The notes below the pieces were generated by a model, which saw nothing but the letters and a program-made list of their open reading frames with translations, did no database searches and was not told the origin of the DNA. From the IMG/VR virus record IMGVR_UViG_3300037589_000013, positions 1 through 52,352 of that record: a stretch of DNA of 52,352 bases; one strand, given 5' to 3'. Positions 4,256 through 52,352 of this stretch are shown here, one piece after another. Made by a program: the position numbers and the translations under genes. The number at the start of each line of letters is the position of its first letter. Within the stretch, counting starts at the first letter, position 1. The DNA is from a virus (taxonomy: Duplodnaviria > Caudoviricetes).

Positions 4256-4724
4256 GCGGCCATGTCATGGTGTATGAAAAAGTGTGTCCCTTCACCTGCA
4301 AATGGCCGGGAACACCTTTTAGATGCCGGTGGAGCGCACCAGGATCGATGTTCTTGGCGATGGCGGCTTGTCGAGCGTTGCGGAACACTTCACCAGTTTC
4401 ATTGCATTTGACATATTGATGCGCCAACGCTCGATAATAGCCGTTATAATTGCAAAACGGTTTGTGAATTCCGACAACGCGGCGGTGTTCGTTGCGTGCT
4501 TCACTCTCTCTTAATGTGATGAACACGCATTCAAGTGTCATTGGCGCGGTTGGATGGCCGAACACATCGGCAAATTTCGAATTGCAATGTGCATCCTCAA
4601 GTGTCAATACATCGCGCAATTGGCAGACGCCAACATATTGGACAATTCCGTTTGCATCACTGCATGTATAGACACACCAAGCGTTGCGCCATTCGACGGG
4701 ATTAGCGGTGATTTGGATGATCAT
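4233..4724 (-). CDS. Degenerate GIY-YIG-like domain plus NUMOD1-type HTH DNA-binding protein
   Basis: CVY........QYVG at the N-terminus; VKCNETGEVFRNARQAA...HLKG...KGHTF at the C-terminus. Confidence 0.65.
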   Translation of the reverse strand: MIIQITANPVEWRNAWCVYTCSDANGIVQYVGVCQLRDVLTLEDAHCNSKFADVFGHPTAPMTLECVFITLRESEARNEHRRVVGIHKPFCNYNGYYRALAHQYVKCNETGEVFRNARQAAIAKNIDPGALHRHLKGVPGHLQVKGHTFSYTMTWPLDSTPPA

Positions 4725-6348: not shown

Positions 6349-6699
6349 TTAACGGATGTCGAACGCACCGCTCACAAACGGCGGGCCATCAACGACACGC
6401 AACAGATTGCGCTTGCGCCGGTCCTGATACATCTTCACCACTTCTGCGAAATCGTAATCCGACATGTCATAGAATTCCACATATCCGCGACCACGATAAA
6501 CACCGGTTAGAATGATCGTGTTCTTGCCACGAAAACCGATGTCGATATCTTCCCGCGTGAGGTTGTCGAGTTCTTCAATGCGCCTGGCAATGCGTTTCTG
6601 TTCGGTGTTGATCACACCGCGCAAATGGTCGATTTCCATTTCGAGTGCAGTAATTCCAAGCCATGATTTGATTTTCTTTTTGATGTTCATTGTCATCAC
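6349..6699 (-). CDS. Hypothetical protein
   Basis: ORF in the minus-strand operon. Confidence 0.7.
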   Translation of the reverse strand: MMTMNIKKKIKSWLGITALEMEIDHLRGVINTEQKRIARRIEELDNLTREDIDIGFRGKNTIILTGVYRGRGYVEFYDMSDYDFAEVVKMYQDRRKRNLLRVVDGPPFVSGAFDIR

Positions 6700-8546: not shown

Positions 8547-8714
8547 TTATCGATGAGTGTCCTCCATCATTTTTTTGCGAATTTCATCGGCGCGCTTCTC
8601 GTATATTTCCGCCGCTTCTTTCAAACATCTTGCGGCGGCGAAAAATGCACCATCTTCCGCGTAAATTTTCGCCATTTCAATTTTTTCATTGACTTGATCG
8701 TGAATTGTGGACAT
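8547..8714 (-). CDS. Small antisense protein, 55 aa (MSTIHDQVNEKIEMAKIYAEDGAF...)
   Basis: Below the ORF-track cutoff; AACGGGAG RBS and its own promoter. Confidence 0.75.
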   Translation of the reverse strand: MSTIHDQVNEKIEMAKIYAEDGAFFAAARCLKEAAEIYEKRADEIRKKMMEDTHR

Positions 8715-8745
8715 TTCACATTCTCCCGTTGGTTGTTTCCATTTC

Positions 8746-8774
8746 TATATATTCGAGTGCTGCAATGATGTCAA
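8746..8774 (-). promoter_or_regulatory. Sigma70 promoter overlapping the terL start
   Basis: TTGACA-N17-TATATA. Confidence 0.75.
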
Positions 8775-10504
8775 CAGATAATGCAGATTTATTTGATTGG
8801 TATTTGCGCGAAACCAGCGGCGATTTAATTAAGCCATGGAAGCCGCACGCTTTATCACATGAGGAATGGCCTCCAGATTACAGCGGTGTTTACGTTTGGC
8901 GAATGCAAACTGTTGACGCATTGCGCAATTCGCCCGATTTGCTCGCTTCTGCAAAAGCATTTTATGCGCAAAATCGCAAGAAATTCATTCTGCATTGGCT
9001 TGACACTTATGATCCGCGCAAGGCGGGCGATAAATGGATACCGTTTGTTTTTTTTGAAAAACAAGATTGGTTTATTGATTATGTTGACCAATTGCGAGCC
9101 GACCAGGAAGGCGGGTTAGTTGAAAAAGCGCGTGACATGGGCGCAACATGGCTCGCGTGCGGCTATTCTGTTGCATCATGGTTGTTTATTGATGATGATG
9201 CGATTGGATGGGGTTCGCGTAAACAGGAATTAATTGATAAATTAGGCGATCCCGATAGTATTTTTGAAAAAATAAGACTGATGATTAATCGGTTGCCTGA
9301 CATTTGGCGTCCGAAAGGATTGACCGATAAAAAACACCTTACGTTTATGAAATGCATCAACCCGGAAAATGGCGCGACAATTACCGGTGAAGCTGGTGAC
9401 AATATCGGGCGCGGCGGCAGAAAGAGCATGTTTTTTGTTGATGAGGCGGCGCACATCGAACGACCGGAAAAAATTGAGGCTGCGCTAGGTGATAACACGC
9501 GCGTGCGCATCGATATTTCATCTGTGAACGGTTTGGGTAATCCATTCCATCGAAGACGTGAAGCGGGCGTTGATTGGTATCCAGACGCTAAAATTGAGCC
9601 GGGATTTACCCGCGTGTTTGTGTTTGATTGGCGCGATCATCCAGAAAAAACACAAGAATGGTATGACACCAGAAAAGCGAAATATGAACGCGAAGGTATG
9701 CAACATATTTTCGCACAAGAGGTTGACCGCAATTATAGTGCAGCGGTTTCTAATACCGTTATTCCATACGAATATATTCAAGCGGCTGTTGACGCACATT
9801 TGATAATTCCGTGTTTGCGCGTGCAACCGCTCGATATTTGGACGGCTGGTTTGGATGTTGCAGACGGTGGAATTGACCGGAACGCGTTGGCCAAACGTCA
9901 ATGGGTAATTTTGCGTCATGTTGAAGAATGGGGCGAACGCGATCCAGGTACGACAACCCGGCGCGCATTGATGTCATGTCGAGAACATCCCGGTATTCGC
10001 GTGATGTATGACGCTATCGGCGTTGGCAGCGGCGTTAAGACCGAATACAACAGAATTACGATTGATGAAAAGTTTGAATGGCGCGGTAAATTTGTTGCAT
10101 GGAATGCGGGTGCTGGCGTCCTAGAGCCATTCAATCGCATAATTCCTGATGATATGGAAAGCTTGACCAACAAAGCGTTTTTCAAAAATCTGAAATCACA
10201 AGCTTGGTGGGCGCTTTATACTCGTTTCTATAAAACATGGAAATGCGTTCAAGCAATCAAAAACAATCAACCAATTCCAGATTATAAAGCCGATGAGTTG
10301 ATTAGCTTGGATGGAACAATGCCGATGTTAATGCAATTAATGAAAGAATTAGCGCAACCGACAAAAGGCGAAAGCACATCATTGCAAATGATCGTCAACA
10401 AAACACCGGAGGGCATGAAATCGCCAAACCTTGCGGATGCGGTTGTTATGGCGTATTTCCCGATACCTGACGATTATGCTACAGTGTACAGCGGAAGCTT
10501 CTAA
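8765..10504 (+). CDS. terL: Terminase large subunit
   Basis: KARDMGATW (Walker A variant), FFVDEAAH (Walker B), ISSVNG, AGLDVADGG and SPNLADA nuclease motifs. Confidence 0.95.
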   Translation: MMSTDNADLFDWYLRETSGDLIKPWKPHALSHEEWPPDYSGVYVWRMQTVDALRNSPDLLASAKAFYAQNRKKFILHWLDTYDPRKAGDKWIPFVFFEKQDWFIDYVDQLRADQEGGLVEKARDMGATWLACGYSVASWLFIDDDAIGWGSRKQELIDKLGDPDSIFEKIRLMINRLPDIWRPKGLTDKKHLTFMKCINPENGATITGEAGDNIGRGGRKSMFFVDEAAHIERPEKIEAALGDNTRVRIDISSVNGLGNPFHRRREAGVDWYPDAKIEPGFTRVFVFDWRDHPEKTQEWYDTRKAKYEREGMQHIFAQEVDRNYSAAVSNTVIPYEYIQAAVDAHLIIPCLRVQPLDIWTAGLDVADGGIDRNALAKRQWVILRHVEEWGERDPGTTTRRALMSCREHPGIRVMYDAIGVGSGVKTEYNRITIDEKFEWRGKFVAWNAGAGVLEPFNRIIPDDMESLTNKAFFKNLKSQAWWALYTRFYKTWKCVQAIKNNQPIPDYKADELISLDGTMPMLMQLMKELAQPTKGESTSLQMIVNKTPEGMKSPNLADAVVMAYFPIPDDYATVYSGSF

Positions 10505-10514
10505 GGAACCAAAC

Positions 10515-12143
10515 ATGCACGTTCGCGCCAAATTGCTCGCATCAACCGCGTTCGCCAATCCTGGCGCTACAACGCTCGCACAACACAACAAAACGCCTGA
10601 TACCGCGTCTTTGGTTGCGGCTGTTGAAATGATCAATGATGTTGCAACAGTTGATAGTGATGAAATATTAAAGCGCTCACCTGACATTTCATCGATGCTT
10701 CCTTATTGGGATATGACAGACGATATTGTTGAAGGTTATGATGCTGTTAAGAATGCGGGTAAGAAATATTTACCGCAATTTGTTGATGAGGAAAAAGAAG
10801 ATTATGATTTACGTTTGGAATTAACAAAATTTACCAATGTATATCGTGATATTGTTGAAGGTTTGGCTGCAAAACCATTTGAAGAGGAAGTTACTTTTAT
10901 TGAAAGTGATGACAAAAAGGTTCCCGAAGAATTAAAAGAATTTGCAGAAAATGTAGATGGTTCCGGCAATAACCTTACTGTTTTTGCGTCATTGGCAATG
11001 TTCAATGGTGTAAATTCTGCAATTCATTGGTTGTTTATTGATTATCCGACTGTTGATCGTGAACGCATCAAAACCAAAGCTGATCAGAAACAAGCCGGAA
11101 TTCGCCCGTTTTGGTCGCACGTCTTAGGGCGTAATATTCTGGAAGCAAAAACCAAAATTGTTAATGGAAAGCAAATGCTTTCTTACATTCGCATTTTCGA
11201 GCCTGGCGTTACTGAACCGGACCGCGTGCGAATTTTTCAATTGAATGATGATGGCAGAGTTGTTTGGGAACTTTATGAAAAATTACCCAATGAGAAAAAA
11301 TTTATTCGTGTTGACAACGGAATATTGTCAATTTCGATAATTCCTCTTGTTCCGTTCATTACCGGGCGGCGCGATGGAACAACATTCAAAATATTTCCTG
11401 CAATGCGCGATGCAGCCGATTTGCAGATTAAACTATATCAATCAGAAAGCGCGCTTGAATACATTTCGAATTTGGCCGGTTATCCTATGCTTGCCGCGAA
11501 CGGTATGCGCCCGGAAATGCAAGCTGATGGAAGGACACCAAAGAAATTAAAGCGCGGACCATCACGCGTGTTGTGGGGTATTCCTGATGGTAATGGTAAT
11601 TCCGGTTCATGGGCTTACGTTGAACCGTCCGCGCAATCGATGGAATTTCTTGAAAAGAAAAATACCAATACCAAGCAAGATTTGCGTGAATTAGGACGTC
11701 AACCATTGACCGCTAATTCCGGTAATTTAACGGTTATCACTACTGCATACGCGGCGGGCAAATCCAAATCGGCGGTTTCCGTATGGGCACTTGCTCTGAA
11801 AGATGCGCTTGAAAATGCGTTTTTGATTACCGCAATGTACATGTCAATTAACGATTATGAACCGGAAATTAATGTTTACACTGAATTTGACGAATTCATG
11901 GATGGTAATTCGGACATTGAAGCGTTGCGGGCGGCACGCGATAGCGGCGACCTTTCACAAGAAACATATTGGAGTGAATTGAAGCGCCGCAAGGTTCTTT
12001 CACCTGAATTTGATAAAGAGGAAGAACGCGAACGGTTGTTGAAAGAAGTTCCCGCCGATGATACAAATCTGGATATTAATTTAGATGATGATTTAGACCC
12101 GAATGCGACACCGGGCAATGTGCCGCGCAACAATGCCGTTTAG
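10515..12143 (+). CDS. Portal protein (DUF4055-like)
   Basis: Follows TerL; YLPQF..E..EDY..RL....F.N, IPLVPF; AAGGA RBS before ATG 10515. Confidence 0.9.
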   Translation: MHVRAKLLASTAFANPGATTLAQHNKTPDTASLVAAVEMINDVATVDSDEILKRSPDISSMLPYWDMTDDIVEGYDAVKNAGKKYLPQFVDEEKEDYDLRLELTKFTNVYRDIVEGLAAKPFEEEVTFIESDDKKVPEELKEFAENVDGSGNNLTVFASLAMFNGVNSAIHWLFIDYPTVDRERIKTKADQKQAGIRPFWSHVLGRNILEAKTKIVNGKQMLSYIRIFEPGVTEPDRVRIFQLNDDGRVVWELYEKLPNEKKFIRVDNGILSISIIPLVPFITGRRDGTTFKIFPAMRDAADLQIKLYQSESALEYISNLAGYPMLAANGMRPEMQADGRTPKKLKRGPSRVLWGIPDGNGNSGSWAYVEPSAQSMEFLEKKNTNTKQDLRELGRQPLTANSGNLTVITTAYAAGKSKSAVSVWALALKDALENAFLITAMYMSINDYEPEINVYTEFDEFMDGNSDIEALRAARDSGDLSQETYWSELKRRKVLSPEFDKEEERERLLKEVPADDTNLDINLDDDLDPNATPGNVPRNNAV

Positions 12144-12176
12144 CAGGATAGCAGCGGCGCAACAGTTGGATAACTG
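12143..12176 (+). promoter_or_regulatory. GGAT double-hairpin element upstream of the scaffold gene
   Basis: GCAGGATAGC-A-GCGGCGC-AA-CAGTTGGATAACTG. Confidence 0.6.
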
Positions 12177-12181
12177 CAAAA

Positions 12182-13003
12182 ATGAAAACGATCATCAAGA
12201 CGCATCTTGCCATTCTCGCCACTGCTGCATTTGACCCAGGCTCGCCGGGCTGGAAAGTTGATGCAGACGGTAAACTTGAATTGAAGGACAGCAACCCGAT
12301 TTACGTTGACGCCAGTGGACGTGAAGCGGTCGTTGCATCCGATACAATTTCCAAATTGAACGCGGAAGCAAAGTCACATCGTGAGCGTGCCGAAAAAGCG
12401 GAAGGCGCTTTGAAAGCGTTTGAGGGTGTGGACCCGGAAGCAGCACGCAAAGCAATCGATACCGTCAAGAATATCGACGCCAAACAATTGATTGACGCTG
12501 GTGAAGTCGAGAAGGTACGCGAGGCGGTCAAAGCTGAATTCACCGCTCAATTATCGGAAAAAGATAAGGCAATTGCAGAACGCGACGGAACAATTGCAGA
12601 TATGCAAATTGGCGGTATTTTCAAAGGTTCAACGTTCTTGCGTGAGAAAGTCGCGTTGCCGCTCGATATGGTTGAAAGTTATTTCAAGTCAAATTTCAAG
12701 CTGGATAACGGCAAGCCGACAGCCTATTACAAGGACGGCAATCCGGTTATGTCAAAAGAGCCTGGCAATATCGGAAATCCTGCATCGCCCGATGAGGCAT
12801 TGCGCTTGCTGATTGAAGCACATCCGCAAAAGGATATGCTGTTGAAAGCCGATGATAGCAGCGGAAGCGGAAGTGGCGGCGCTGGTGGCGGTCGTGGTGG
12901 CGGTCGTCAAATGAGGCGCGCTGACTTTGAGAAGCTGGCACCAGCGGCACAAGCGGAAGCGGCAAAGAAACAGCAGGCCGGTGAAATGGTAATCGTGGAT
13001 TAA
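12182..13003 (+). CDS. Capsid scaffolding protein
   Basis: Position before the capsid gene; coiled coil LNAEAKSHRERAEKAE, LIDAGEVEKV; Gly-rich linker and short C-terminal domain. Confidence 0.85.
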   Translation: MKTIIKTHLAILATAAFDPGSPGWKVDADGKLELKDSNPIYVDASGREAVVASDTISKLNAEAKSHRERAEKAEGALKAFEGVDPEAARKAIDTVKNIDAKQLIDAGEVEKVREAVKAEFTAQLSEKDKAIAERDGTIADMQIGGIFKGSTFLREKVALPLDMVESYFKSNFKLDNGKPTAYYKDGNPVMSKEPGNIGNPASPDEALRLLIEAHPQKDMLLKADDSSGSGSGGAGGGRGGGRQMRRADFEKLAPAAQAEAAKKQQAGEMVIVD

Positions 13004-13030
13004 TTCCCTTTCAATTAATCCACTGATCGC

Positions 13031-13070
13031 ACGGGCGGAACTTTGGCGGGGTTCCGCCCGTTGCTGTTTT
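13031..13070 (+). terminator. Intrinsic terminator, possibly bidirectional
   Basis: 11-bp stem ACGGGCGGAAC/GTTCCGCCCGT between convergent genes. Confidence 0.75.
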
Positions 13071-13290
13071 ATTTTTCATTGAGTAATTCAAACCAAAGCC
13101 TAATGAGTGTTTCAACGCGTTCTTTTGCGGCTTTGGATGACGTGAATTCTTTCATTGATTTCACTCCAGGCAAGAAAACGCGCGCTTGCCATTTCTCCAA
13201 CTTGTACACTTTGCCGACAATAACCGAACCAATCATTGCGATTTCGCCGCTTTCATTTCGGTTAAGATTACGCGTCCAGATGGGTTTCAT
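13069..13290 (-). CDS. Hypothetical protein
   Basis: Antisense cassette; ATGA coupling. Confidence 0.7.
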   Translation of the reverse strand: MKPIWTRNLNRNESGEIAMIGSVIVGKVYKLEKWQARVFLPGVKSMKEFTSSKAAKERVETLIRLWFELLNEK

Positions 13291-13463
13291 CGCGTCACTT
13301 CTTTTCGTTTCCGTAAATCTGCAATTACCTTGTCTTGATCTTTGTTATAAATATCAGCGACAAGACAGGCGGTTACGGAAATTGAACCGAATTCATCATC
13401 AAGCCATTCCGTATCATCGTTGTCGAGCAACCATTGCAACGCGGCTTTATATCCCATTTTCAT
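13287..13463 (-). CDS. Hypothetical protein (MKMGYKAALQWL...)
   Basis: GGAG RBS; start refined from the ORF track. Confidence 0.7.
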   Translation of the reverse strand: MKMGYKAALQWLLDNDDTEWLDDEFGSISVTACLVADIYNKDQDKVIADLRKRKEVTR

Positions 13464-13467
13464 TGTT

Positions 13468-13653
13468 CTAACTCCACACTGCAAACATGTTATCGCGCTG
13501 CATCCACAAAACAGCCTTGCCGTTTGCGACGTTGACAACGCGCGCCAACATACCGTTGATTTTAACCCACTGTCCGCGCAAGTAATTTTCAACCTGCGAT
13601 GCAATCGGGCGGTTGCGGTCGATATAGACGGTTTTAACATACAACTTACGCAT
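13468..13653 (-). CDS. Hypothetical protein
   Basis: AAGGGAG RBS; promoter TTGACA-N17-TACATC at 13691-13719. Confidence 0.7.
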   Translation of the reverse strand: MRKLYVKTVYIDRNRPIASQVENYLRGQWVKINGMLARVVNVANGKAVLWMQRDNMFAVWS

Positions 13654-13715
13654 GGGTAAATCTCCCTTAATTTGTGTGCGTGTTTAATTAGATGTAATTG
13701 TTGTTGTGGATTGTG

Positions 13716-13970
13716 TCAATACCATTTCAGCGTATTTTTTGTTTTGATGAGTTCGTTTCGGAATTCCTCGCTAAATTCCGAACCATCGCAATCATATTCA
13801 CGAAGTGTCGGACCCATGCCCGGCTTTCCTTCAAACGATCCACCTTTTCCGGTTGCGGTTTCATATACGCGGAAATGATAATTTCCCTTGCGCCCTTCAC
13901 ACCGAACATATGCGCCGGTTACAAGTTCCGGGCTGTAGCTCTTGGATGTGTAAATGATTGTATTAGTCAT
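13716..13970 (-). CDS. Hypothetical protein
   Basis: AAGGGA RBS downstream of the repeated promoter element. Confidence 0.7.
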   Translation of the reverse strand: MTNTIIYTSKSYSPELVTGAYVRCEGRKGNYHFRVYETATGKGGSFEGKPGMGPTLREYDCDGSEFSEEFRNELIKTKNTLKWY

Positions 13971-13983
13971 TGTCGTGTTTCCC

Positions 13984-14035
13984 TTGCTGTTGATTGTTTA
14001 TCGTATGTTTCGTTTCTAATTGCAACACTTATTTT
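13984..14035 (-). promoter_or_regulatory. 52-bp repeated promoter element, copy 2
   Basis: 46/52 identical to 7831-7882; TTGCAA-N17-GATAAA. Confidence 0.75.
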
Positions 14036-14053
14036 TATCCACACTAGAGCCGG

Positions 14054-14082
14054 TTGACCATCGCGGCAAATCAGCGTATTTA
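14054..14082 (+). promoter_or_regulatory. Promoter for the major capsid gene
   Basis: TTGACC-N17-TATTTA. Confidence 0.65.
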
Positions 14083-14096
14083 TCGAACATTGCCAA

Positions 14097-14133
14097 GCAT
14101 TGGATAATGCGCGGCGCGCGGGTTGGATAACCC
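14097..14133 (+). promoter_or_regulatory. GGAT double-hairpin element in the capsid 5' UTR
   Basis: GCATTGGATAATGC-GCGGCGC-GC-GGGTTGGATAACCC. Confidence 0.7.
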
Positions 14134-14208
14134 AACAAACCAGTTTTTCCGAAAACCGGCGCGCGTCCTGCATTTGTCAACCGCGCCACAAACACAAAGG
14201 CGCGCAAA

Positions 14209-15453
14209 ATGCGTAGTTCACTCATTCTCCAAAATTCGACGGTGCTTGCTGCACCTTACATTCTTTCCGGCGCTTACGGTTCCGCAAACACGCTCACCAA
14301 TCTGATTGGCGATCTGTATGCGGCGCTTGATGTGGTGTCGCGCGAGCTTGTCGGCATGATCCCTGGCGTTACTCGCAACGCATCCGCCGAACGTGCCGCG
14401 CTTGGTCAGGCGGTCACATGGCCGGTTGCGCCATCCATGGGCACATTCAATGTTACCCCTGCAATGGCTGTTCCCGAACCTGCGGACCGCACCATCGGTA
14501 ACGACAGCATGACAATCACCAAATCCAAAGGTGTTGAATTCGGCTGGACCGGTGAAGAACAGCGCGGTTTGAACGTCCAGGGACCGGGCTATCTGTCAAT
14601 TCAGGCTGATATGTTTGCACAAGGTCTGCGCACGCTCACCAATGAAATTGAAGCTGATCTTGTCGCGGCTGCGGCGGCTGCGGCAACCGTGGCAACCGGC
14701 ACGGCCGGAACTACCCCGTTTGCTTCCAACGTTGGTGACAGCGCGCAAGTTCGCAAACTGCTTGATGACGCGGGCGCGCCGGGTTCGGAACGTTCGTTGA
14801 TTATCGACACCACATCAGGTGCGGCACTTCGTACCCTGGCAAACTTGACCAAGGTCAATGAAGCCGGAACCAACATGACGTTGCGTGATGGTCAGTTGCT
14901 CGATTTGAACGGTCTTTCGATCCGTGAAACCGGGCAACCTTACACGGTCGCATCACACGGCACGGCGGCAAATGCGACAACCAACACGGCAGGTTATGCC
15001 AAAGGCGCAACAACCATCACCCTAGCGAGCGCCGGAACGGGAACGATCATTGCGGGCGATTTCATTTCGTTTGCCGGTGACAGCCGTTCTTATCGTGTTG
15101 TGACTGGTGACGCGGATGTTTCGGGCGGTGGTACGGTTGTCATTGCCGAACCGGGCTTGCAGGAAGCCATTCCGGCGGCTGCAACGGCGATCACTGTCAA
15201 CCGCCCGTCTTCCGGTGCCTCTACTCGCAATATCGCTTTCTCGCGCGATGCGATGGCGCTGGCAGCACGTGCACCGGCCTTACCGGAAGGCGGCGACTTG
15301 GCAATGGACCGCATGTTGCTGACCGATCCGCGATCCGGCCTTGTGTTTGAGGTTTCGCTTTATCCTGGTTATCGCAAGGTGCGCGCGGAAGTCGCAATGT
15401 CGTGGGGCGTCAAGGCCATCAAGCCCCCGCATATCGTCGCATTGCTCGGTTAA
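14209..15453 (+). CDS. Major capsid protein (P22 gp5-like HK97 fold with insertion domain)
   Basis: ANTLTNLI.DLY.ALDVVSRELVG, AFSRDA..LAARAP, DPRSGL.FEV..Y, WGVKAIKP; strong codon bias. Confidence 0.92.
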   Translation: MRSSLILQNSTVLAAPYILSGAYGSANTLTNLIGDLYAALDVVSRELVGMIPGVTRNASAERAALGQAVTWPVAPSMGTFNVTPAMAVPEPADRTIGNDSMTITKSKGVEFGWTGEEQRGLNVQGPGYLSIQADMFAQGLRTLTNEIEADLVAAAAAAATVATGTAGTTPFASNVGDSAQVRKLLDDAGAPGSERSLIIDTTSGAALRTLANLTKVNEAGTNMTLRDGQLLDLNGLSIRETGQPYTVASHGTAANATTNTAGYAKGATTITLASAGTGTIIAGDFISFAGDSRSYRVVTGDADVSGGGTVVIAEPGLQEAIPAAATAITVNRPSSGASTRNIAFSRDAMALAARAPALPEGGDLAMDRMLLTDPRSGLVFEVSLYPGYRKVRAEVAMSWGVKAIKPPHIVALLG

Positions 15454-15471: not shown

Positions 15472-15505
15472 ACGGCGCGGAACTTTGACGGTTCTGCGCC
15501 GTTTT
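15472..15505 (+). terminator. Intrinsic terminator after the capsid gene
   Basis: 12-bp stem ACGGCGCGGAAC/GTTCTGCGCCGT followed by a T run. Confidence 0.75.
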
Positions 15506-15533
15506 GGTAAAATGACGTGTCGGGATAAAATAA

Positions 15534-15806
15534 ATGCAAAACGCACAAGAAAAACCGCAATCTAATGATGTCGCCACCGAACTGCGGGCAAGAATTGTTG
15601 CCTTGGAAACATGGAAAATAGAGCGAACCGTTGAAAGCGCTCGCCATGATGAACGTTGGAAACATTTGGATGTCAGATTTAATCAGCTTGACAAAGACAT
15701 CAAAGCAGTAAGCACAATTCTAAGTCGGCTCAATTGGCTTGTCATAAGTGGAATTGTCGTTGCTGCAATAGCTTTTGTCATTGGTGGCGGTTTCGCAAAA
15801 ATTTAA
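15534..15806 (+). CDS. XhlA-like membrane protein (coiled coil plus C-terminal TM helix)
   Basis: RIVALE...LDVRFNQLD then WLVISGIVVAAIAFVIGGG. Confidence 0.65.
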   Translation: MQNAQEKPQSNDVATELRARIVALETWKIERTVESARHDERWKHLDVRFNQLDKDIKAVSTILSRLNWLVISGIVVAAIAFVIGGGFAKI

Positions 15807-15825
15807 CGCAAAGAAAGGAAATGCA

Positions 15826-16188
15826 ATGTCACGTGTACCAACAATGATAATCGATACTGAAAACGGACCGGTTACAATCAACCGTTCGGCTTTCGATCCT
15901 GAAACAATGCGAGAGTATGGCGCAACGGTCGATCCGGCTCCAACGGTCGATCCGGCTCCAACGGTCGATCCGGCTCCAACGGTCGATCCGGTTGATCCGG
16001 TTGATCCGGTTGATCCGGCTCCAGACGCCACCACGGTACCGCAACAGATGCTTGTTACAAAGAAGGGTAAGAAGTTCATTGTTGTTGACGAAAACGCCAA
16101 CCCCATCGAACATGCGGACATTGAAGCGGACGGATATGCAAAAGAAGCTGATGCATGGTCGGCAATTATGAACGTCCAGGGGAAATAA
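15826..16188 (+). CDS. Head-associated protein with a Pro/Asp repeat linker
   Basis: AAGGA RBS; INRSAFDPET; position after the capsid gene. Confidence 0.65.
   Translation: MSRVPTMIIDTENGPVTINRSAFDPETMREYGATVDPAPTVDPAPTVDPAPTVDPVDPVDPVDPAPDATTVPQQMLVTKKGKKFIVVDENANPIEHADIEADGYAKEADAWSAIMNVQGK
15923..16023 (+). repeat. Coding tandem repeats: 18-bp unit x about 3.8, then 9-bp unit x 3
   Basis: (CAACGGTCGATCCGGCTC)n then (TTGATCCGG)3, encoding TVDPAP and VDP units. Confidence 0.95.
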
Positions 16189-19168: not shown

Positions 19169-19212
19169 TTCAATAACTCCCGTTAATTAGTTTGCGATTG
19201 GATAATTGTATA

Positions 19213-22990: not shown

Positions 22991-23779
22991 ATGAAAAATA
23001 TGATCAACCTTGTTGCAGCAATGGCATTCGCGAATGCGAACGCGGCGTCACGCTTGTTTGTTTGCGCAACTCCGCAAAACACCGACTTAACCCAATCCGA
23101 ATACGAATTGTTGACATGGGTTGAAGTCAAGGGGATTGGTTCGCGCGGTGAAACCGGCAAACAGACCAATATTTTGACCTATGACACATGGGATACAACC
23201 GTTGTGCAGAAGGCCAAAGGTATGACCGATGCAGGTTCTCCGCCGGTTGAAGTTGCGCGCATTCCGACCGATCCCGGTCAAATCATCATGCGGGCGGCTG
23301 GTGCGGTCGGCAACAACAACAATTACGCGTTCAAGGAATTGCGTTCGGATGGTTTGGTTGCCGGTCAAGGTTCGGTTTTCTACAATCGCGGCTTGGTGAC
23401 AGGCCCGACGCGTCCAGGTGGACGAAATGAAGATTTTGACCTTGAGGTGTACACACTCGGATTGCAGCAAGAAGAAATCGTTGTAAATCCTGGCGCGGGT
23501 GGAACTGCACCAGCCTTTACGGCGCTTCCAGCCATCTCTGGTACGGAGGAAGACGGCGAAACTCTCACGCTTTCCAACGGCACGGTTACAGGTGATGCAA
23601 CCATCACCTATCAATACCAGTGGTTTGTCAACGGTGTTGCCAAGGCTGGTGAAACCGCAAGCACGCTCACGCTCGTTACTGCGGATGTTGGCAAATACAT
23701 TCAAGGTCGCGTTGTTGCGACAAACGACAGCGGTTATGCGGTCGGCTGGTCGGACGCAACCGGCGCAATTGGCGCTTGA
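22991..23779 (+). CDS. Major tail (tube) protein with a C-terminal Ig-like domain
   Basis: LTWVEV.......GETG, KAKG..DAG, DPGQ; C-terminal PAISGT...GETLT...YQYQW...DVGK.I...V.ATN. Confidence 0.9.
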   Translation: MKNMINLVAAMAFANANAASRLFVCATPQNTDLTQSEYELLTWVEVKGIGSRGETGKQTNILTYDTWDTTVVQKAKGMTDAGSPPVEVARIPTDPGQIIMRAAGAVGNNNNYAFKELRSDGLVAGQGSVFYNRGLVTGPTRPGGRNEDFDLEVYTLGLQQEEIVVNPGAGGTAPAFTALPAISGTEEDGETLTLSNGTVTGDATITYQYQWFVNGVAKAGETASTLTLVTADVGKYIQGRVVATNDSGYAVGWSDATGAIGA

Positions 23780-37569: not shown

Positions 37570-38179
37570 CTAGTTTCCTCACTCTTGCGCGGCACATTTC
37601 ATCGAATAATTCTATTGGGTATTCGTTTTTAGCTTTATTTACGATAACACAAACAATTTGAATATTATCATAAGTATAACCTTTTCCACTATCCTTTCGA
37701 TCAATAGACGGTGCAAATGGTCGGTATCGAAAACCATTGGATTTTAAATCAAAAGGAATATTGGTTAATGCACAACAATCATTTTGTAAAGTTGATAAAG
37801 TTTGCAAAATTGTATCATCTAGTTCATACTCCAGGTTTTTCTTTTTCGCTCTTGCTTTTGAAATAATATGCAACATACGAAAAGTACCGGAATAAGTTTC
37901 TCTCCAATTCTTTGCGTTTATACTTAAACGTTCTGAATTTTGATCATAATAATTTCGTTCCCATTTATTATATTTTTCTCTGTTTTCATTTCTGTATTTT
38001 TTATTGTAAGCAGTTCTCTTGTCATTATGCTTCTTTCGTAACGGTTTATTGTATTCTGCAACACAACTCTTACAATAAATATATTTTCCGTCTTTGCGAG
38101 ATTTATCTCTACCAAACTCATCAATTGATTTTTCCAATTGACATTTTGAACAATATTTATTCTTCATATTCTGCAACAT
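37559..38179 (-). mobile_element. HNH-like homing endonuclease gene interrupting the polymerase
   Basis: CSKC...F...CKSC Zn finger; PSIDRKDSGKGYTYDNIQIVC..VN.AK; AT-rich. Confidence 0.88.
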
Positions 38180-40736: not shown

Positions 40737-40811
40737 TGGTGGAGTAACTAGGATTTGAACCTAGAACTTTCCCGGTAATTCGGTTGCGTCTACCAATTCC
40801 GCCATTACTCC
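40737..40811 (-). tRNA. tRNA-like gene with an aberrant anticodon arm
   Basis: Perfect 7-bp acceptor stem GGAGTAA/TTACTCC plus ACCA, Leu-type D arm, perfect T arm CTAGG-TTCAAAT-CCTAG; anticodon arm only CCG-AATTAC-CGG. Confidence 0.75.
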
Positions 40812-40817
40812 TATTTT

Positions 40818-40902
40818 TGGTGCGCACGGTCGGACTTGAACCGACAAACCTAATGGTGACAGATTTTAAGTCTGTTGCGTTTACCTATTTCGCCACGTGC
40901 GC
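40818..40902 (-). tRNA. tRNA-Leu (anticodon TAA)
   Basis: GCGCACG/CGTGCGC-ACCA; ACAGA-CT-TAA-AA-TCTGT; long variable arm; GTCGG-TTCAAGT-CCGAC. Confidence 0.95.
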
Positions 40903-50369: not shown

Positions 50370-52352
50370 GCAAGCAGCTACATATATTACAACACTTACG
50401 CAACAGCCGATAGAAAGCGCGACTGTCGATTTTCGGTGTATTCACGACAGCGATAAAAGTGTTGCCGCACATAATTTTCACAACACACTTCCGGCGATCT
50501 GGTCAACGTTGGTTGATTATCAATCTCGCGGTTACGGCGTATTTGTCAATATATCCGCGTTGGACGGCATCGGGCGTGATGTCGCAAATGTGCATTATAT
50601 TCGCGCGCATGTTGCCGATTTGGACGGTGTGAACGCGGAAGCGGATTATTCACTTGCTGCACAATGGCAACCGTTGCCCACATTTGCGGTTTCATCATCG
50701 CCCGGTAAAGCGCATGTTTATTGGGTTGTCAATCCGTATACTGGAAACGACTATTTCACATTGTTGCAACGTCGCATTGCGCAACAGTTTAACGGTGATC
50801 GGTCAATTATCGATCCGACGCGAGTTATGCGTCTTCCTGGCACGCTACATCTAAAGCGCCCGGAAACGCCACACCTTGTCAACATGTGGTCACTTGGTGG
50901 CGTTGTCGGACCGGTTGAAACACTGGCGTCCAGTCTTGCACATGTGAACGTCATTGACAGCGGTGGCGGGCGTCATGCGCTTGGCGAACCGTCACTTGCC
51001 GCGCCGTCGCTCGATTGGCTGCGGTTCGGCCTGTCCTTGATCGATCCAAACCAGCTAGACCGGGCCGAATGGATATCCACAACCGCCGCAATCAAACAGG
51101 CCGGTTGGACGCTGGCAGACGAACCGGCCTTGCGCGCGATATGGGATGAATGGTGCGAGCGCTACACCGGCAACGACGCGGGCGAAAATGATAAACAATG
51201 GCGATCCATCCGAGAAACGGAAGTTGGTTGGAAATCGCTTTACCGGCGCGCACCTTCATTGGTCGCATATGAAAAATTCGGGTTCGATAAAACACCTGCA
51301 CCAACACCGCAACCGTTGCCCGCTCCAGGCGAGCCGCAACAACAACCGTTGCCCGATGACAATGAACGCGAGCAATTGCCCGATATTCTTTCTGAATATG
51401 ATTGTCAAAAATGGTTCAAGGATTGCTTTTTTGTCGAGCGAATGGGCGAAATTCTAACGCCACGCGGTCGGTTCATGAATGCAACAAAATTCAACGGTAC
51501 ATATGGTGGCAAATTGTTCATCATCACACCAGATGGAAAAACAACAGATGAACCTTGGAAAGCTGCATTGCGTTCAACACTTTGGACAATTCCGAAAGTT
51601 GATCACATTAGATTTTTGCCAGAACAGCCAACATTTGCGATTATTGAAGATCAGCTAGGGCGAAAAGGTGTAAACACCTACATTCCTATTCGGCTCACTT
51701 CCAAACGTGGTGATATCAGCCCGTTTTTGCGACATATGGAAAATATGCTTCCGGTCGAAAGCGATAGACAAATCATCTATTCATATCTCGCGCACAACGT
51801 TCAATACCCAGGATTTAAAATACCATGGGCACCAATGGTGCAATCTGCGGAAGGTGTCGGTAAAGGTTTCATTCAAGAAGCGATAACGCTAACGCTTGGT
51901 GAAATGTACACCTATAGCCCTAAAGCGGATGAATTGGTTAATAGCGGTTCAAAATTTAACGCTTGGATGCGCGCCAAATTGATGATTATTGTGAATGAAA
52001 TTAAAGTTGATGAACGTCGCGAATTGATTGAAATTCTCAAGCCGATGATTTCAGACAAACGCGTTGAAGTGCAGGGGAAAGGTGTTGACCAGGAAATGGA
52101 AGACAATCCGGCCAATTGGCTGTTGTTCTCCAATTACAAAGACGCCATCCCGGTAAATGTGAATGGTCGGCGCTACTCGATTTTCTACAGCGCTATTCAG
52201 ACAAACGCGGATCGTCTGGCGCGCGGCATGGATGACGCATATTTTAACGGGCTGTTCACATGGTTGCATTCGGGCGGCAATGAAATAATTGCTGATTGGT
52301 TGTTGAATTACCCAATCGAGCGCGGCGCGATACCCATGCGCGCGCCGGAAAC
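50356..52352 (+). CDS. Primase-helicase, N-terminal part (RepB-type primase, PriCT-2, SF3-type helicase); continues across the junction into 1-551, about 771 aa in total
   Basis: Not in the ORF track. Manual translation from ATG 50356 gives MQNYEQAATY...RAHVADLDG...SSPGKAHVYW...DPTRVMRLPG (primase), LDRAEW...WDEWC (PriCT-2), QSAEGVGKG (Walker A) and IIVNE (Walker B). Confidence 0.9.
   Translation, partial: MQNYEQAATYITTLTQQPIESATVDFRCIHDSDKSVAAHNFHNTLPAIWSTLVDYQSRGYGVFVNISALDGIGRDVANVHYIRAHVADLDGVNAEADYSLAAQWQPLPTFAVSSSPGKAHVYWVVNPYTGNDYFTLLQRRIAQQFNGDRSIIDPTRVMRLPGTLHLKRPETPHLVNMWSLGGVVGPVETLASSLAHVNVIDSGGGRHALGEPSLAAPSLDWLRFGLSLIDPNQLDRAEWISTTAAIKQAGWTLADEPALRAIWDEWCERYTGNDAGENDKQWRSIRETEVGWKSLYRRAPSLVAYEKFGFDKTPAPTPQPLPAPGEPQQQPLPDDNEREQLPDILSEYDCQKWFKDCFFVERMGEILTPRGRFMNATKFNGTYGGKLFIITPDGKTTDEPWKAALRSTLWTIPKVDHIRFLPEQPTFAIIEDQLGRKGVNTYIPIRLTSKRGDISPFLRHMENMLPVESDRQIIYSYLAHNVQYPGFKIPWAPMVQSAEGVGKGFIQEAITLTLGEMYTYSPKADELVNSGSKFNAWMRAKLMIIVNEIKVDERRELIEILKPMISDKRVEVQGKGVDQEMEDNPANWLLFSNYKDAIPVNVNGRRYSIFYSAIQTNADRLARGMDDAYFNGLFTWLHSGGNEIIADWLLNYPIERGAIPMRAPE
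52121..52352. repeat. Terminal direct repeat, right copy (circular overlap)
   Basis: Begins TGTTGTTCTCCAATTACAAAGACG, the same as position 1; lies inside the primase-helicase CDS. Confidence 0.97.

Follow-up and report, generated by a model that had tools for sequence, protein, structure and literature searches.

Tailed phages have to produce capsid and scaffold subunits by the hundred and in suitable proportion, and the post-transcriptional means by which they achieve this are poorly understood. The head module of the viral record IMGVR_UViG_3300037589_000013 (Duplodnaviria; Caudoviricetes) raises the question of whether one small RNA element could act on both genes. This record, which comprises 52,352 bases and is near-complete (~95%), was analysed at its full length and is called the window below. 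An inspection of its letters (the original prediction) had described a double GGAU-hairpin element upstream of both the scaffold gene and the major capsid gene, and had proposed a translational operator that balances the two products. Our analysis indicates that the two sites are almost certainly copies of one conserved, structured RNA motif of the sense strand. Judged from sequence comparison, the module comprises an outer helix and two (sometimes three) short hairpins, each carrying GGA (usually GGAU) in a tetraloop, with the linker RGCGC. The features of the two sites are listed below (bp, base pairs; aa, amino acids), with R1 denoting a covariance model seeded with nine copies of identical geometry.

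12129-12180, plus strand: scaffold-gene copy, whole match to R1 (28.7 bits, E ~9e-5, outside the seed)
12135-12140 with 12153-12158, plus strand: outer helix P1 of the scaffold copy, enclosing the weak hairpin 1
12143-12144 with 12151-12152, plus strand: weak hairpin 1 of the scaffold copy, 2 bp, loop AGGAUA at 12145-12150
12163-12176, plus strand: hairpin 2 (P3) of the scaffold copy, CAGUU/AACUG, loop GGAU at 12168-12171
12182-13003, plus strand: scaffold gene, 273 aa, PHROGs phrog_784/206, Pfam DUF6651; leading candidate for a phage-encoded partner
14086-14137, plus strand: capsid-gene copy, whole match to R1 (64.4 bits; this copy belongs to the seed)
14091-14094 with 14113-14116, plus strand: outer helix P1 of the capsid copy, enclosing hairpin 1
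14097-14101 with 14106-14110, plus strand: hairpin 1 (P2) of the capsid copy, GCAUU/AAUGC, loop GGAU at 14102-14105
14120-14133, plus strand: hairpin 2 (P3) of the capsid copy, GGGUU/AACCC, loop GGAU at 14125-14128
14138-14208, plus strand: remainder of the capsid leader, with a hairpin region CCAGUUUUU, a hairpin GGCGCGCG...CGCGCC and then the ribosome-binding site; read by eye and kept in the closest relatives
14209-15453, plus strand: major capsid (major head) gene, 414 aa, PHROGs phrog_283, weak match to PF11651 (P22_CoatProtein)

The scaffold site reads GCAGGATAGC (12143-12152), A, GCGGCGC (12154-12160), AA and CAGTTGGATAACTG (12163-12176), followed by the scaffold ATG at 12182, and the capsid site reads GCATTGGATAATGC (14097-14110), GCGGCGC (14111-14117), GC and GGGTTGGATAACCC (14120-14133), with the capsid ATG at 14209. 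The hairpin and linker letters of the original prediction, including a linker identical at both sites, are therefore present as described, and the PHROGs matches agree with its gene identities. At the scaffold site, hairpin 1 is weak, with only two pairs around AGGAUA, but lies inside an outer helix that had been missed. The 5′ strand of that helix is inside the portal reading frame, the portal stop codon (TAG, 12141-12143) falls in the internal loop, and the scaffold copy thus overlaps this stop codon. Hairpin 2 stops 5 nucleotides (nt) short of the scaffold ATG; the GGA of its loop (12168-12170), 11 nt before the ATG, is by inspection the only Shine-Dalgarno-like sequence at the site, as originally noted. 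The capsid copy ends farther from its gene, with 75 nt between it and the capsid ATG.

When each site was folded alone, the minimum-free-energy fold was the proposed one. The folding stability was ordinary for the base composition (z of -0.96 and -0.88), and the case for the structure therefore rests on comparative evidence. Folding of the whole 127-nt capsid leader gave another minimum-free-energy structure in which hairpin 1 is broken; we set this alternative aside, since its pairing is not kept (by eye) in the closest relative, L084, and covariation favours the local fold. In L084 (94% capsid identity), compensatory changes occur in both capsid hairpins, hairpin 1 being CAUC/GAUG and hairpin 2 GGGCU/AGCCC, and the counterpart of scaffold hairpin 2 in Rhizobium phage RHph_X2_24 is likewise compensatory (CAGAU/AUCUG). 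In the remainder of the capsid leader, the GGCGCGCG...CGCGCC hairpin can alternatively pair with GGCGCGC beside the ribosome-binding site, and this alternative pairing within 14138-14208 may form a switch.

Relatives were gathered as 80 viral, 66 metagenomic and 6 genomic loci encoding capsid relatives. Across 156 sequences (1.02 Mb), two GGAT-loop hairpins at a spacing of 18-30 nt were counted 56 times on the gene strand and 0 times on the other. A further scan for GGAT...RGYGC...GGAT demanded no stem, so that copies were not chosen by their stems; it returned 55 matches, 27 of them unique and all on the plus strand. Hairpin 1 with at least 2 bp and hairpin 2 with at least 4 bp can form in 22 of the 27, against a background in which a stem of at least 4 bp is found at only 3.6% of the 6,758 GGATs in the set. 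The window's scaffold site has a hairpin 2 of 5 bp and, at hairpin 1, no pair adjoining the loop, and four of the 27 matches are stemless (window positions 89, 21655 and 52209, and L004:7057). Hairpin 2 is paired in 95.8% of cells, with both sides changed at 5/5 pairs and a covariation of 0.842 (shuffle mean 0.357, reached by 0/500 shuffles); with the partner strand slid, covariation did not exceed 0.24. Hairpin 1 is paired in 79.2% of cells with a covariation of 0.715 versus 0.290 in shuffles, its inner three pairs being solid.

Searching R1 against 100 sources (712 kb) yielded 46 matches at E <=1, all on the gene strand. For the whole structure, an alignment of 28 distinct rows, fitted to R1 itself, which favours the structure, is 93.5% paired, with 11/13 pairs changed on both sides and a covariation of 0.656 versus 0.277 (0/500 shuffles reach it). 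An independent alignment of 40 distinct rows, drawn from the gene-blind scan described below, gave 90.9% paired cells, again 11/13 pairs changed on both sides, and 0.566 versus 0.222 (0/500 shuffles). The stems thus covary as originally proposed, with compensatory changes across relatives and no shuffle as good in either alignment. The outer helix P1 is plausible, and in L152 it stacks on hairpin 1 to give a single stem of 11 bp.

These data also bear on an explanation at the level of DNA, in which the inverted repeats bind a protein or are extruded as hairpins, or in which two intergenic regions resemble each other by chance; we give it next to no likelihood. Short inverted repeats are indeed present in both halves, and the GCGC of the linker is palindromic. 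However, the half-sites vary freely with their complementarity kept, contrary to what a dimer-binding palindrome would show, and the copies lie on the gene strand alone in both the hairpin-pair scan (56 versus 0) and the R1 search (46 versus 0). G.U occurs in 35 paired cells versus A.C in 3, so the helices can form on the coding strand only, as for RNA. With more than 60 distinct copies conserved, chance likeness is excluded.

What is held constant across the family is narrower than the TT-GGAT-AA core of the original prediction, which applies to the window's hairpins; among relatives only the GGA(U) loop is fixed, and the linker is RGCGC. The hairpin loops read GGAU in 25/28 and 27/28 distinct copies, the others being GGAA, GGAC, GGA and one GAAAU, and divergent copies add GGAA, GGAG and AGGAC. 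The loop-to-loop distance is 21-24 nt in canonical copies. At hairpin 2, a C or U stands directly 5′ of GGA and forms a pair with the first base 3′ of the loop (C-G 12, U.G 11, U-A 5). In most copies, the alignment rows also contain an AU-rich stretch directly 5′ of P1.

Within the window, the 8-mer TTGGATAA is unremarkable by itself (6 matches versus 2.35 expected, with 4/100 shuffles reaching 6). Three of the six matches are element hairpins, two are stemless sites within coding sequence, and one forms a lone hairpin in a non-coding gap (19195-19208). The composite GCGGCGC-N5-TTGGATAA matches without mismatch at the two sites only (7 matches at up to 3 mismatches), and R1 finds just two copies, the next best of the 18 matches listed having E 0.41. 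That match is a second lone GGAU-loop hairpin (4537-4564, CGGTT/GGCCG); like the one at 19195-19208 (CGATT/AATTG, between two minus-strand genes), it has neither partner hairpin nor linker, and both may be remnants or chance.

A search of Rfam 15, which the original prediction had suggested, matched no family and places the motif outside that database. At gathering thresholds, the whole window gave two tRNA matches only; at E up to 10 over 12000-14300, no listed plus-strand match covered the hairpins or linker of either copy, and the only nearby plus-strand row was ceN33 at 12044-12160 (15.4 bits versus a gathering threshold of 75 bits). A tRNA-like nature is not indicated, as the tRNAs called by ARAGORN and Rfam lie only at 37753-37844 and 40740-40902. 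Nor do the copies resemble intrinsic terminators, with no terminator-like call at either one and with CAAAA or AACAAA, not a U run, after hairpin 2. The motif therefore appears to be a well-supported structured RNA family of more than 60 distinct copies that is absent from Rfam 15. Literature searches on the motif, on phage P106B and on scaffold autoregulation found no description of it, though the catalogue in PMC10690425 may already hold it; the part of that 2023 paper available to us reports 10,006 viral candidate RNAs, five of them upstream of a major capsid protein family.

Conservation in related phages, the absence of which had been named as refuting the proposal, is extensive: the element stands before both genes in RHph_X2_24 and P106B (Rhizobium phages of the genus Rigallicvirus), in Caulobacter phage DMCA, at a Shewanella fodinae locus and in dozens of uncultured phages. 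RHph_X2_24 and P106B have altered yet complementary stems at both genes. In DMCA, R1 detected a copy between the scaffold-like and capsid genes, with GGAA as the loop of hairpin 1, and three hairpins were seen by eye at the scaffold gene, the first with the loop AGGAAA and the other two with GGAA. A GC-rich provirus (L049) has the element at both genes, with the loops AGGAC and GGAG in its scaffold copy. The 3.9-Mb S. fodinae genome contains only two copies, both in a phage-like region. Looser variants were recognised by eye at the scaffold gene of L200 (three GGAU hairpins) and in L027, L083 and L086 (paired GGA-loop hairpins without the linker).

The original scope of scaffold and capsid genes was correct for both but too narrow, as the major tail gene is also preceded by the element in two lineages (L005/L006 and L016/L095). 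This tail gene is 68-75% identical to window 22991-23779, the window's own major tail protein gene (phrog_158, E 3e-22), before which R1 found no copy. Whole records of carriers hold 1-3 copies each (10/10), and ten records of more distant capsid relatives gave none better than E 0.33.

A gene-blind control searched viral contigs for a fixed-gap pattern of loop, linker and loop, irrespective of the genes nearby. At least 120 stretches matched, of which 80 were taken as loci; the figures are a sample of the collection and hence lower bounds. A match was called structured when hairpin 1 had at least 2 bp and hairpin 2 at least 4 bp. The 80 loci contained at least 81 pattern matches, at least 38 of them structured. 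Among the 38 structured matches listed, the downstream gene was a capsid homolog in 18 and a scaffold homolog in 16, two ran off the locus, and the remaining two preceded a scaffold gene initially mis-framed (L231) and a major head gene of another family, phrog_212 (L200). All 37 listed loci with a structured match encode a portal, scaffold or capsid protein of the window's family, and 33 encode the scaffold; of the four that do not, L204, L236 and L254 are truncated close to the element and L206 extends just 1.7 kb upstream. No scaffold or capsid homolog is encoded at any of the 43 listed loci with an unstructured match only. Within the 80 loci, R1 identified at least 57 copies, frequently two in one phage, and all R1 copies (46 in the related sources, at least 57 in the gene-blind sample) precede a scaffold, a major capsid or, rarely, a major tail gene.

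The genes shared by carriers narrow the candidates further. The divergent carriers (DMCA, the L049 provirus and the Shewanella region) have in common with the window only the portal (~25% identity), scaffold (37-43%) and capsid (49-52%) proteins; when ten head modules were clustered transitively, two more products joined the shared set, each in 9/10, namely the Ad1 adaptor and that of an unannotated 137-aa open reading frame (ORF) at 15775-16188. In the IMG/VR contig L200 (14.2 kb), the capsid belongs to phrog_212, yet the scaffold family is kept (40% identity) and the element stands before both genes, so the element tracks the scaffold family and not the capsid family. L200 has a mosaic head module, i.e., a natural recombinant whose portal, scaffold, MuF-like, adaptor and tail genes are related to those of the window, and in which features linked to the scaffold could be told apart from those linked to the capsid.

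Two predicted signals frame the transcription of the capsid copy.

13031-13061, plus strand: strong terminator-like hairpin of 14 pairs, 3′ of the scaffold gene, parting the scaffold and capsid transcripts
14054-14082, plus strand: putative sigma-70-type capsid promoter, TTGACC (14054-14059), 17-nt spacer, TATTTA (14077-14082)

The proposed location of the capsid element at the 5′ end of its mRNA is plausible on this basis, as this promoter would start transcription within a few bases of P1, although a consensus promoter scanner made no call there because the -10 hexamer ends in A. By manual count, TTGAC lies 29-35 nt before the first model position at 12/15 capsid sites and 2/2 tail sites; the capsid sites without it (L152, L049 and DMCA) are inside an operon. 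At scaffold sites, TTGAC is absent within 70 nt in 10/11 cases, the other (L016) having one ~54 nt away inside the portal gene. The element thus goes with the downstream gene and not with a promoter. This argues against a nut/put-type antitermination signal, which modifies RNA polymerase soon after initiation and lets it pass downstream terminators. Such a signal would suit small hairpins just after the promoter at most capsid and tail sites and a strong terminator between the scaffold and capsid genes, but it is highly improbable, given the presence of TTGAC at only 1/11 scaffold sites and its absence from 3/15 capsid sites, the position of the capsid element downstream of the scaffold terminator with a promoter of its own, and the scaffold sites of L152 and L049, which directly follow a terminator-like hairpin and hence stand in the wrong order.

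From the fixed loops, fixed spacing and free stems, we infer selection by a sequence-specific, probably dimeric, RNA-binding protein. The reading we tentatively prefer, at somewhat less than even confidence, is that the element is a protein-binding operator on structural-gene mRNAs that is read by a protein of the head module, most plausibly the scaffold. The original interpretation is supported in part: a cis-acting role on the scaffold and capsid mRNAs fits the strand, position and gene specificity described above. Protein binding to the module would tune translation or mRNA lifetime of virion-protein genes. At scaffold sites like that of the window, where hairpin 2 ends 5 nt before the start codon and the only Shine-Dalgarno-like triplet is in its loop, binding would repress initiation; at capsid and tail sites, where the module is at or near the mRNA 5′ end, stability would be the more likely target of binding. 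Most copies do not fit simple occlusion of the ribosome-binding site, as the gap between hairpin 2 and the start codon ranges from 5 to 83 nt. The coat-protein hairpins of RNA phages and the T4 RegA, gp32 and gp43 operators are short sites near a start codon at which a phage protein binds and limits synthesis. Those operators are single sites, placed at the ribosome-binding site of one gene or a small number of genes, whereas the element is a module of two or three hairpins that occurs at variable distance before several structural genes.

Comparative data are most consistent with the DUF6651-family scaffold protein as the partner, though as a candidate only. In this scheme, dimers of free scaffold protein would bind the paired GGA loops in the leaders of the scaffold and capsid mRNAs and, in some phages, in that of the tail tube, and synthesis of shell building blocks would be throttled or stabilised by assembly demand, a feedback of the kind reported for the P22 scaffold. 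That the element is an RNA operator by which the scaffold protein senses its own unassembled pool is, put so specifically, rather unlikely. [quoted passage not shown] The gene class is the same and the head module of the window is distantly related to that of P22 (PF11651), but the scaffold family differs and the portal-scaffold gap in P22 is 13 nt.

Several observations weigh against the scaffold as the reader, or against an operator more generally. Bases 1-12000 of P22 contain no R1 copy, the best match (E 0.25) lying elsewhere than the portal-scaffold gap, and the P22 parallel therefore concerns function only. In L006 (record G004), the element precedes the capsid and tail genes, yet the phage's own scaffold gene lacks it, and scaffold relatives at 26-33% identity (L037, L082) have no element. 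The AlphaFold model of the scaffold protein (mean predicted local distance difference test score, pLDDT, of 73) comprises a small beta unit, long helices, a compact domain and a C-terminal helix-turn; Foldseek comparison with the PDB returned nothing at E <1 (best 1.1) and no recognisable RNA-binding fold, which is weak evidence. Co-inheritance of scaffold and element may stem from physical linkage alone, the element adjoining the gene. The wide range of distances to the start codon is unlike that of classic occluding operators, and P1, which is 93-97% paired and almost invariant, attests pairing potential, not covariation.

Scaffold proteins of the Rigallicvirus-like type carry an extra hydrophobic N-terminal segment of ~20 residues (window 12182-12250, pLDDT <50) that those of the DMCA, Shewanella and L049 types lack; a similar signal-peptide-like segment opens the major tail proteins of L005 (L005:5725) and L016 (L016:8499). 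Among other products of the phage, a Pfam scan of 94 ORFs in the window identified no RNA-binding domain, sigma factor or RNA polymerase. The minus-strand ORFs at 13069-13970, between the two genes, were rejected as partner: their number varies among relatives, they are absent where the scaffold gene abuts the capsid gene while the element persists, and they have no Pfam domain.

5′-terminal stem-loops stabilise bacterial mRNAs; they need no conserved loop or paired-hairpin geometry and do not stand between cistrons. The element resembles them where a highly expressed gene has a hairpin only a few bases from the start of its transcript. The main rival to the operator reading, though less likely than it, is that the RNA works without a protein, either as a structured cap, 5′-terminal or made by processing, against 5′-end-dependent decay, or through GGA loops that serve as 30S standby or enhancer sites, and in this way raises the output of abundant virion proteins. 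The genes that it precedes are exactly the structural genes of highest copy number, its start falls a few bases at most from the predicted start of transcription at the 12 capsid and both tail sites with TTGAC, and it follows an AU-rich stretch in most copies; a stabiliser or standby site would tolerate the observed range of start-codon distances, and the element spans hosts of two proteobacterial classes while its carriers share no phage regulator outside the head module. However, a generic protective hairpin needs no fixed loop, no fixed loop spacing of 22-24 nt and no RGCGC linker. Shine-Dalgarno mimicry would be limited to GGA, a three-base match to the anti-Shine-Dalgarno sequence, and >90% of copies have U in the fourth position of the loop in place of the favoured G. 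A portable, host-dependent enhancer would also be expected on other capsid types or other highly expressed genes, whereas another capsid family appears at only 1/36 listed gene-blind copies with a readable downstream gene, in the phage (L200) that keeps the scaffold family.

The spacing range permitted for one CsrA dimer at two sites includes the 21-24 nt of the element, and CsrA sites have an unpaired A (or AN) directly 5′ of GGA. The likeness to CsrA/RsmA sites that had been pointed out extends to the architecture, namely GGA in the loops of short hairpins, two sites at dimer-bridgeable spacing, and placement in 5′ leaders at the ribosome-binding site or the extreme 5′ end; the accessible text of PMC13443453 describes CsrA targets as GGA-containing hairpin loops. 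The element differs in the paired pyrimidine before GGA, in its conserved outer helix and RGCGC linker, and in its confinement to phage head and tail genes. A phage-encoded CsrA was rejected, as none of the six phage or provirus records searched encodes one; six-frame searches for PF02599 gave no match in the window, in RHph_X2_24, P106B or DMCA, or in the L049 provirus.

A GGA-loop-binding protein of the host, CsrA/RsmA in gammaproteobacteria and a functional analogue in alphaproteobacteria, could instead tie late synthesis to host physiology, or the element could titrate that regulator. The two sites per element and their CsrA-target-like arrangement would suit this, and S. fodinae, with the element in its phage-like region, encodes CsrA (92.5 bits). 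We nevertheless consider it improbable. Beyond its phage-like region, the Shewanella genome contains no further copy, GGA is preceded by C or U and not by A, and the searched phages and provirus lack PF02599 themselves. According to the part of PMC7366521 available to us, some proteobacterial classes have no CsrA homologs, S. meliloti has no chromosomal csrA homologs, and csrA is carried by 30/2,517 phage genomes. Sinorhizobium is the host of RHph_X2_24. With CsrA missing in this alphaproteobacterial setting, from the S. meliloti report as from the phages, host CsrA cannot be the shared partner.

In the portion of PMC9144972 available to us, the Burkholderia phages JC1 and Bcep22 are reported to carry a CsrA-like gene between the portal and major head (capsid) genes, which would be in keeping with a CsrA-type reader. 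In Bcep22 (L198), the 95-nt gap between the CsrA-like and head genes (6366-6460) contains, by eye, a GCGC/GUGC hairpin with the loop AGGAU and a second GGA 19 nt upstream; this gap may be a target of the phage's own CsrA. The capsid family is another one there, the window's family has no CsrA gene, and the likeness is a single example seen by eye. By analogy, head-gene leaders with GGA hairpins that are read by a protein of the same module may be a recurring arrangement.

If the operator reading is true, the motif would be a compact, widespread and easily mutated handle on the capsid/scaffold ratio. Were the scaffold its reader, it would provide a defined RNA target for scaffold autoregulation, and a structural protein would double as a sequence-specific RNA regulator in phages of at least two proteobacterial classes; if protein-free, the element would be a compact natural booster or stabiliser of expression in alpha- and gammaproteobacteria. 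Carriers such as P106B, RHph_X2_24 and DMCA are culturable. Knowledge of the motif would also improve how phage head modules are annotated, and the element could be used as a portable part for expression control.

The rest of the head module upstream of the scaffold gene is as follows.

8705-10504: large terminase gene
10431-12143: portal gene, PHROGs phrog_145, with the stop codon TAG at 12141-12143

The small minus-strand ORFs that separate the scaffold gene from the capsid gene, three or four in number (13069-13970; phrog_25543, phrog_18899, the rest unmatched), are bounded by the hairpin terminator at 13031-13061 and look like inserted accessory genes, since their number differs, or is zero, among relatives. 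The last 232 bases of the window (52121-52352) duplicate the first 232 with a single mismatch at position 105; the unit genome is therefore put at 52,120 bp, and the assembly is probably circular or terminally redundant. Calls of tRNA genes disagree: ARAGORN predicted tRNA-Tyr at 37753-37844 (plus strand) and tRNA-Leu at 40818-40902 (minus strand), while Rfam placed tRNAs at 40740-40811 and 40821-40902 (minus strand) and none at 37753.

C-5 cytosine methyltransferases often target short palindromes, and the GCGC in the linker of the element is such a palindrome. The window encodes an enzyme of this class (PF00145, 451-1425); among carriers, it is common to DMCA and G004 only, and a link between methylase and element is therefore unlikely. 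Just 3′ of the capsid gene, before a 90-aa ORF at 15534-15806, a strong promoter-like site (15485-15513; TTGACG, 17 nt, TG-TAAAAT) matches 10/12 consensus positions.

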